A stretch of 15,754 nucleotides of DNA from a virus, in the UHGV virus genome UHGV-0069791; one strand, 5' to 3'. Below, in pieces: positions 2,944 to 3,294 of the stretch. The stretch's first letter is position 1. The number at the start of each line of letters is the position of its first letter. The translations under genes were made by a program, and so were the position numbers. The notes under the pieces were generated by a model. That model did no database searches, was not told the DNA's origin, and worked only from the letters and a program-made list of their open reading frames with translations.

Positions 2944-3294
2944 ATGACTCAAAACTATGAACTGATTGTGAAAGGGATCCGCAATTTTGAGAATAAAGTT
3001 ACGGTAACTTTAGCATTACAGGACAAAGAACGCTTTGACGGTGAAATTTTTGACCTGGACATCTCGCTGGACCGTGTTGAAGGTGCTGCGCTGGAGTTTT
3101 ATGAGGCAGCGGCCAGAAGGAGCATCAGACAGGTCTTCCTGGATGTCGCTGCCGGGTTATGTGAAGGGGATGAGCAGTCGCCGGAAAAGCGCCCCGTAAT
3201 TTTAGATGCGCAGAATGTGTGGATAACCTACAAAGGAAAGCTACCAGGAAGAATTACTGGTTCTCTGAAGACTCCTCCGGAATCACAACCTTAA
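2944..3294 (+). CDS. Hypothetical protein inside the lysis cassette, between holin and endolysin; position matches YdfR/DUF1327-type genes of Qin-like prophages (homology unverified)
   Basis: 116-aa ORF with no signal peptide or TMD. It is tightly packed between holin (stop 2939) and endolysin (start 3358), with a GGAGAG Shine-Dalgarno-like sequence upstream. Confidence 0.6.
   Translation: MTQNYELIVKGIRNFENKVTVTLALQDKERFDGEIFDLDISLDRVEGAALEFYEAAARRSIRQVFLDVAAGLCEGDEQSPEKRPVILDAQNVWITYKGKLPGRITGSLKTPPESQP

Follow-up and report, generated by a model that had tools for sequence, protein, structure and literature searches.

What does a small soluble protein contribute to a phage when its gene lies between those for the holin and the endolysin, and does that position reveal its function? 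The question is raised by a 116-aa open reading frame (ORF) in a viral sequence of 15,754 nucleotides, the whole of which is referred to here as the window. Because it contains an antiterminator Q gene, then lysis genes, and then terminase, portal, capsid and tail genes, the window corresponds to the late region of a lambdoid Escherichia coli prophage. The PGAP annotation of a near-identical prophage names the holin gene essD and the endolysin gene rrrQ, and the ORF separates the two (Table 1). Farther upstream, the methyltransferase gene occupies the slot of the stx genes in Stx phages, and a strong terminator-like hairpin (2663-2679, GGCCACGTCAGGTGGCC plus a T-run) follows it just ahead of the holin gene.

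Table 1. Features of the window and, in the last two rows, of related loci (L numbers) discussed in the text
Feature	Position	Strand	Basis or remark
Antiterminator Q gene	68..448		Upstream of the lysis cassette
DNA methyltransferase N6/N4, 350 aa	1604..2656		Between the Q antiterminator gene and the holin gene
Phage-21-type (S21) holin, 71 aa, MKSM dual-start motif	2724..2939	+	PF04971, E 2e-35; PHROG holin families
Shine-Dalgarno GGGGAGAG	2929..2936	+	Read from the sequence; 8 nt before the ydfR ATG
ydfR-family ORF	2944..3294	+	ATG start, 116 aa plus stop; PF07041 (DUF1327), E 1.4e-43
DUF1327 core, aa 1-74	2944..3165	+	Alignment and AF2 model
Escherichia-specific tail, aa 75-116 (..PEKRPVILDAQNVWITYKGKLPGRITGSLKTPPESQP)	3166..3291	+	Alignments; strongly conserved
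ydfR-endolysin spacer, 63 nt	3295..3357		Alignment to the leader element
SAR-type endolysin, 177 aa, RrrQ-like lysozyme	3358..3891	+	PF00959, E 2.2e-24; hydrophobic SAR-like N terminus
Rz spanin	3888..4355	+	PF03245, E 1.5e-28; PGAP "lysis protein"; last gene of the lysis cassette
Rz1, embedded in Rz	4108..4314		PF06085, E 3.8e-21
Convergent partner genes	L095:5266-5553, L098:5245-5529, L100:5245-5526, L001:3224-3490, L065:3531-3809	-	
Full leader copies, examples	L098:5530-5694, L100:5527-5696, L196:6123-6325; more than 115 others (L190-L309)		

The identity of the ORF is clear. The original prediction had named DUF1327/YdfR for a gene in this position, and profile search agrees, with a score of 147.4 bits to PF07041 against a gathering cut-off of 25, over model positions 1-92 of 93. 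The protein also matches PHROG 2091 and PHROG 406 (E ~1e-67), both annotated as unknown function, and PGAP/RefSeq calls the corresponding ORF in a 99.8%-identical prophage of strain CU39ES-1 "YdfR family protein" (WP_001529529.1). No family other than DUF1327 was found in Pfam, NCBIfam or PHROGs, NCBIfam itself giving no match; likewise, the anti-phage defence profiles of PADLOC-DB matched neither the window protein nor long variants of it, and a sequence search with the window protein found no solved structure in the PDB. The ORF is thus an already catalogued member of a known, annotated family, to which this copy adds nothing new.

YdfR of the window is a soluble protein with no transmembrane or hydrophobic segment, as had been predicted for an ORF lying between holin and endolysin: its highest 19-residue Kyte-Doolittle mean is 0.69, compared with 1.72 for the holin and 1.65 for the SAR segment of the endolysin. 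It has none of the transmembrane segments of which a holin or membrane antiholin needs at least one, and it is acidic, the whole protein having a pI of 4.9 and its core one of 4.6. When the gene is compared pairwise with four homologues, dN/dS is 0.2-0.4 in core and tail, with values up to 0.5 in the tail, and these low ratios, together with hundreds of homologues, indicate a real protein under purifying selection rather than a chance reading frame.

The gene is also very common. DNA matches to ydfR occur in 4349 of 5426 complete E. coli genomes (~80%), at up to 10 places per genome, and homologues of 60-99% identity are abundant in Escherichia and Shigella. Among phages, the protein is matched in 101 records, every one from Escherichia or Stx phages, including H-19B, BP-4795, YYZ-2008, mEp460 and 2H10. 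A scan of one genome per species found ydfR in Escherichia, Shigella, and metagenome-assembled genomes labelled Veillonella (parvula) and Bacillota (L008, L010), and one RefSeq YdfR protein carries an Enterococcus faecalis label; all three labels seem to reflect mis-binning of, or contamination by, Escherichia prophage DNA and not the real hosts. The observation of such a gene in a prophage is ordinary, and what modest interest it has lies in the abundance of the family. The YdfR family ranks among the commonest uncharacterised genes of E. coli prophages, Stx1 and Stx2c phages are among the carriers, and if YdfR altered the time of lysis or the decay of host RNA, this would matter for the release of phage and of Shiga toxin.

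Within Escherichia, the position of ydfR is as constant as its occurrence is frequent. The claim that Qin-like prophages carry the gene in the same place holds: the order in K-12 Qin is essD-ydfR-rrrQ, as in the window; phages 2H10 and YYZ-2008 have holin-YdfR-lysozyme; and in a sample of IMG/VR viral contigs retrieved with the YdfR alignment, ydfR starts 4 nt after an S21-type holin gene in 80 of 80, with an endolysin gene downstream in all 78 contigs long enough to show it. In the window, too, 4 nt separate the holin stop from the ydfR ATG, and the last holin codons overlap the Shine-Dalgarno sequence of ydfR, a site that had been correctly noticed. The description of the ORF as tightly spaced fits this upstream side only, since 63 nt lie between its stop and the endolysin ATG.

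A constant slot does not make ydfR necessary there. Among 80 viral contigs with a holin 99-100% identical to that of the window, YdfR is absent from 64, in which the holin gene is followed immediately by that of a different endolysin (33% identical), and the 11 that do have YdfR all encode an RrrQ-type endolysin (11/11). Conversely, RrrQ-type endolysins at ≥90% identity occur in 333 phage records, compared with the 101 records for YdfR, which is present in 101 of 459 phage records with this endolysin type. The clearest case is TL-2011c, in which an endolysin 93% identical to that of the window sits 4 nt after the holin stop, its ATG standing exactly where ydfR starts in the window, with the same Shine-Dalgarno ahead of it (junction GGGGAGAGTAAGCTGATG); this is the adjacency of holin and endolysin that had been expected of cassettes lacking the extra ORF. 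Because the same holin and a 93%-identical endolysin occur without YdfR, we consider ydfR an optional passenger and not a core lysis component. No YdfR match was found in Klebsiella, Salmonella and Yersinia phages with 67-87%-identical endolysins. We rejected the idea that YdfR is tied to the type of endolysin, since Stx2a phages and Klebsiella/Salmonella phages have the RrrQ type without it. The GGGGAGAG site at the holin end serves the endolysin in YdfR-less relatives, and insertion of ydfR, after which the endolysin is no longer behind this strong site, may alter endolysin translation.

An extra gene between genes that are adjacent in related phages such as TL-2011c, with a mosaic distribution, invites comparison with the morons of lambdoid phages (lambda bor, HK97 gp15). 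Unlike these, however, ydfR has no promoter or terminator of its own—no promoter-like or terminator-like sites flank it—and no distinct base composition, its GC content of 0.47 showing no anomaly relative to the neighbouring genes (0.48 and 0.51), and it is co-oriented with the late operon and translationally embedded in it. It is better described as an insertion within the late operon than as a moron of the classical, autonomous kind.

The original prediction reasoned from the conserved location to a role in lysis timing or lysis inhibition. The comparisons give this inference no support: the 64 same-holin contigs and TL-2011c do without YdfR, prophages of Citrobacter, Enterobacter and Cronobacter have the core of the protein in places other than lysis cassettes, and experiments on the K-12 homologue point to RNase E and RNA, its overexpression having no effect on growth (PMC13232886). 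Spelled out, the idea makes YdfR an optional modulator in the cytoplasm, which would bind the S21 pinholin at its cytoplasmic tail, or would delay or sharpen triggering in some other way, perhaps through the Escherichia-specific tail. The closest precedent is the cytoplasmic antiholin RIII of T4, which is likewise a small soluble cytoplasmic protein of a phage with a holin; it differs in having no sequence or family similarity to YdfR of the window, and the presence of YdfR does not co-vary with the holin. RIII is not known to be encoded between holin and endolysin genes. We judge such a role for YdfR unlikely. The invariance of the slot in Escherichia and co-translation from the Shine-Dalgarno at the holin junction are what one would expect of it, and the conserved tail, which is found only in lysis-cassette forms, could be a lysis-specific part; yet the same holin and a near-identical endolysin function without YdfR, the core domain is also found away from lysis genes, and searches of Pfam, NCBIfam and PHROGs revealed no homology to holin, antiholin or RIII families. 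A phenotype that might speak for it, the presence of the Keio deletion of K-12 ydfR among CPRG-positive (leaky envelope) mutants (Paradis-Bleau 2014, supplements, PMC3879167), could by our inference be polar, if transcription from the kan cassette runs on into rrrQ, the gene of the SAR endolysin downstream, and K-12 overexpression gave no growth or lysis phenotype (PMC13232886).

Alignments distinguish three modules in the family, and the window protein has two of them, a DUF1327 core and a C-terminal tail. The core is predicted by AF2 to fold into three antiparallel strands (5-14, 18-27 and 34-43) and one long helix (50-74), with a pLDDT of ~90 over aa 4-74 once free-standing cores had joined the alignment (48 sequences), and Y53-E54 and A57 are near-invariant. 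The tail, of which aa ~80-112 (EKRPIILEAQNVWITYKGKLPGRITGSLKTPP) form a conserved Escherichia-specific stretch, is modelled as unstructured with low confidence (pLDDT 50-62), and in forms of 176 and 183 aa it is prolonged by the third module, a coiled-coil-like segment of ~60 aa. Only the core is shared with K-12 YdfR of Qin (UniProt P76160), which belongs to the same DUF1327 family, has the same predicted three-strands-plus-helix fold and is 80% identical over aa 1-74, the only residues aligned by BLASTP. The two differ in length (103 aa versus 116 aa in the window), and the tail of K-12 YdfR, like that of the 104-aa mEp460 form, which also has the core, is unrelated to that of the window. 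Orthology with K-12 YdfR thus does not extend to the C-terminal tail, and the window protein falls in a 114/116-aa subfamily.

An exhaustive profile search yielded just 91 cluster representatives, including free-standing cores of 72-86 aa and two double-core proteins, and the modules are shuffled in other database proteins (P0154, P0127). Between the window and YYZ-2008 (L002:2712-3053), dS is 1.6 in codons 1-74 and 0.27 in codons 75-112, which points to a recombination joint inside ydfR near codon 70. From this contrast, the tail and the endolysin side have a more recent common history than the core. No significant structural match to the core fold was found; three-strands-plus-helix proteins (Rad52/ERF/Mgm101, dsRBDs) recurred among the matches and were discarded as too weak to use.

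These data also bear on the least charitable explanation, that ydfR is selfish or decaying filler with no phage or host function, kept only for the ribosome-binding context that it gives the endolysin. Such an explanation would account for a gene that is dispensable for the cassette, for the lack of an overexpression phenotype (PMC13232886) and for the truncated, frameshifted and chimeric YdfR variants that are numerous in databases. It is very hard to believe, however, of a gene whose dN/dS is low in both core and tail, whose core is conserved across genera down to ~25% identity with near-invariant residues retained, and which so large a majority of complete E. coli genomes carry, often enough to reach 10 places in one genome.

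A possible function for the core comes from RNA decay. Phages offer precedents for the targeting of RNase E, either late or early in infection, and RraA and RraB are acidic inhibitors of this enzyme. Our search of the literature on DUF1327, ydfR and lysis-cassette morons found only one RNase E study, one envelope screen and one overexpression MIC screen, the last of which reported a threefold increase in streptomycin MIC upon ydfR overexpression (PMC12924614). The RNase E study, from 2026, used RNase G as bait in a two-hybrid screen, from which the first 72 codons of K-12 ydfR were recovered three times, and residues 1-72 were sufficient for a signal with Rne/Rng (PMC13232886). Signals were stronger with RNase E constructs having the catalytic half, and a full-length YdfR fusion with a short linker interacted only with Rne1-597 (PMC13232886). 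Moreover, Strep-YdfR co-eluted FLAG-Rne(1-598), and a DNase-resistant nucleic acid co-purified with K-12 YdfR; the authors placed K-12 YdfR among the RapZ-like proteins that bind the enzyme's catalytic half (PMC13232886). Overexpression of K-12 ydfR changed few transcripts and did not slow growth; the link to RNase E comes from this one study using overproduction, whose authors did not exclude RNA bridging or a contaminant (PMC13232886).

We tentatively favor the explanation that YdfR of the window is an accessory protein made late, with a core that binds a host factor, most probably RNase E, while recognizing that this may well prove wrong. The gene would be transcribed and translated with the late and lysis genes, on the ribosome-binding site that serves the endolysin in YdfR-less relatives. 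The acidic core (aa 1-74) would act as a protein-binding module docking, late in infection and possibly together with RNA, on the catalytic N-terminal half of host RNase E, where it would modulate host or phage RNA decay, and the variable C-terminal tail would tune binding or add a second contact. Two features make this plausible by analogy. First, the window protein is 80% identical to K-12 YdfR over the region reported as RNase E-binding (residues 1-72), although for the window copy both the binding and its biological role would have to carry over from the homologue. Second, it is soluble and acidic like RraA/RraB and would, given the reported binding of its K-12 homologue (PMC13232886), resemble the known regulators of RNase E (RraA, RraB, RapZ; phiKZ Dip, T7 gp0.7), which are small and mostly acidic RNase E binders. 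The comparative results narrow the question: the gene is dispensable for the cassette, and its conserved 74-aa domain coincides with the reported RNase E-binding region. Several points weigh against this explanation. We found neither homology nor fold similarity to RraA, RraB, RapZ or Dip, an acidic domain is unlikely to be a direct RNA binder, and the conserved tail (aa 75-116) is missing from K-12 YdfR. In addition, docking on RNase E accounts neither for the strictness of the slot in Escherichia nor for the convergent gene with which DUF1327 is constantly paired elsewhere.

The free-standing cores (72-86 aa) of Citrobacter, Enterobacter, Cronobacter and metagenomes lie outside lysis cassettes: after the tape-measure gene, between tail genes M/L or I/J, or between lysis genes and terminase. 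At all 10 of the non-Escherichia DUF1327 loci examined, a convergent ORF of 74-99 aa lies 5-16 nt downstream of the gene or overlaps its 3' end, and the family of this partner is mostly PHROG 10490, once PHROG 25324. Comparable arrangements exist in E. coli, with a convergent ORF between YdfR and the endolysin that encodes 88 aa (PHROG 2572) in phage 2H10 and 90 aa (PHROG 2411) in other contigs. Such an ORF is present in 10 of 80 sampled viral loci, whereas 69 of the 80 are partner-less. All four partner PHROGs (10490, 25324, 2572 and 2411) are annotated as unknown function; comparison of partner families with Pfam or PADLOC gave no match, nor did defence and toxin libraries. The partners cannot be treated as one family, BLASTP placing them in at least four groups without similarity to each other. 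Some unrelated cargo and upstream proteins of these cassettes also look as though a strand-rich N terminus is followed by a C-terminal helix, a likeness that hints at a wider superfamily.

To the right of the convergent genes lies a second conserved feature, a non-coding element of ~150 nt, to which a pattern search assigns at least 120 viral contigs. In its minus-strand orientation it comprises a -10-like TAnnnT box, a leader with a hairpin, and a second stem beside a Shine-Dalgarno sequence; read on the plus strand, it has a Rho-independent terminator at its end. The top of its hairpin shows covariation: compensatory changes occur at 4 of 4 pairs among 71 non-redundant copies, in which pairing extends to 98.9% of cells, values clearly above those of slide and shuffle controls, and the wobbles (U-G in 49 and G-U in 22 sequences) are compatible with the minus strand only. 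Among the matches listed, 105 of 120 have a minus-strand ORF next to the element, drawn from at least 12 unrelated families; these ORFs are mostly of 56-99 aa, start 64-67 nt from the pattern and are oriented against the late operon. The element is absent from Rfam 15, and a literature search for the leader sequence found nothing. We rejected a relationship to the lambda bor-type upstream region, as the leader is not beside the Bor-like gene of TL-2011c. Judged from the alignments, the element is a widespread, uncatalogued, structured promoter/5'-leader cassette that would drive small convergent genes in prophages. That the core elsewhere travels with a convergent partner and this conserved leader narrows the question of its function further.

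A trace of the cassette is present in the window. The spacer between ydfR and the endolysin gene shares homology with the promoter-proximal part of the minus-strand leader and with half of the leader's first hairpin; it ends in mid-hairpin and has no cargo gene, and so looks like a deletion derivative, a truncated remnant. No partner ORF was found in the window, which thus does not contain a two-gene convergent DUF1327/partner module beyond this 63-nt remnant, and neither the spacer nor the cassette of the window gave an Rfam match at E ≤ 1 or a stable fold (z-score -0.8). The spacer also supplies the endolysin with a leader that lacks a Shine-Dalgarno (GATAAATCCTGATAAATATCC then ATG, 3337-3360). 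The same leader is conserved ahead of the endolysin start in all YdfR-containing cassettes; in K-12, which has no such spacer, the ydfR stop overlaps the rrrQ start.

One could conclude that YdfR of the window is the orphaned half of a convergent module, in which DUF1327 works with or against a small gene that faces it tail to tail on the other strand; it might, for instance, be expressed late to neutralise a cargo protein made in the lysogen. The window copy would have lost its partner by deletion, and would survive through a second activity or by protecting against the partners of co-resident prophages. The uniform pairing at the 10 non-Escherichia loci argues for such a module, as do the E. 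coli variants with a phrog_2572 or phrog_2411 gene between YdfR and the endolysin and the truncated copy of the partner's leader that forms the window spacer. So does a coincidence: among the 120 leader matches listed, DUF1327 genes occur at 5, and these are exactly the 5 loci with a phrog_10490 partner. However, the other 115 of the 120 listed leaders stand beside other cargo with no DUF1327 nearby, and adjacency may simply mark an insertion hot spot. It is also difficult to reconcile a dedicated module with partners from at least four families without detectable similarity and without matches in defence or toxin libraries, or with the 69 partner-less loci among the 80 closest viral ones, at which ydfR is nonetheless under purifying selection. 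On balance, we regard an orphaned module as improbable, to much the same degree as a modulator of lysis timing.

The two lines of evidence could be combined. DUF1327 might be the late-strand half of a convergent module beside the leader cassette, with YdfR acting as a late antagonist or RNA-decay adaptor that silences, through RNase E, the lysogen-expressed cargo at the lytic switch; the window copy would then be a partner-less form fixed in the lysis cassette. So specific a scenario is decidedly less probable than its separate elements, and the probability that remains after all these explanations is left for something not considered here.

The late region of the window has a further irregularity, downstream of the lysis genes. 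The prophage of CP082777, otherwise 99.8% identical, lacks a segment of ~0.85-0.9 kb (~4505-5440). This segment lies between Rz/Rz1 and the terminase region, carries an ORF for a Rha-family regulator (Phage_pRha, within 4455..5222) and starts right after a terminator-like hairpin (4530-4549); it is another accessory insertion in the late region.
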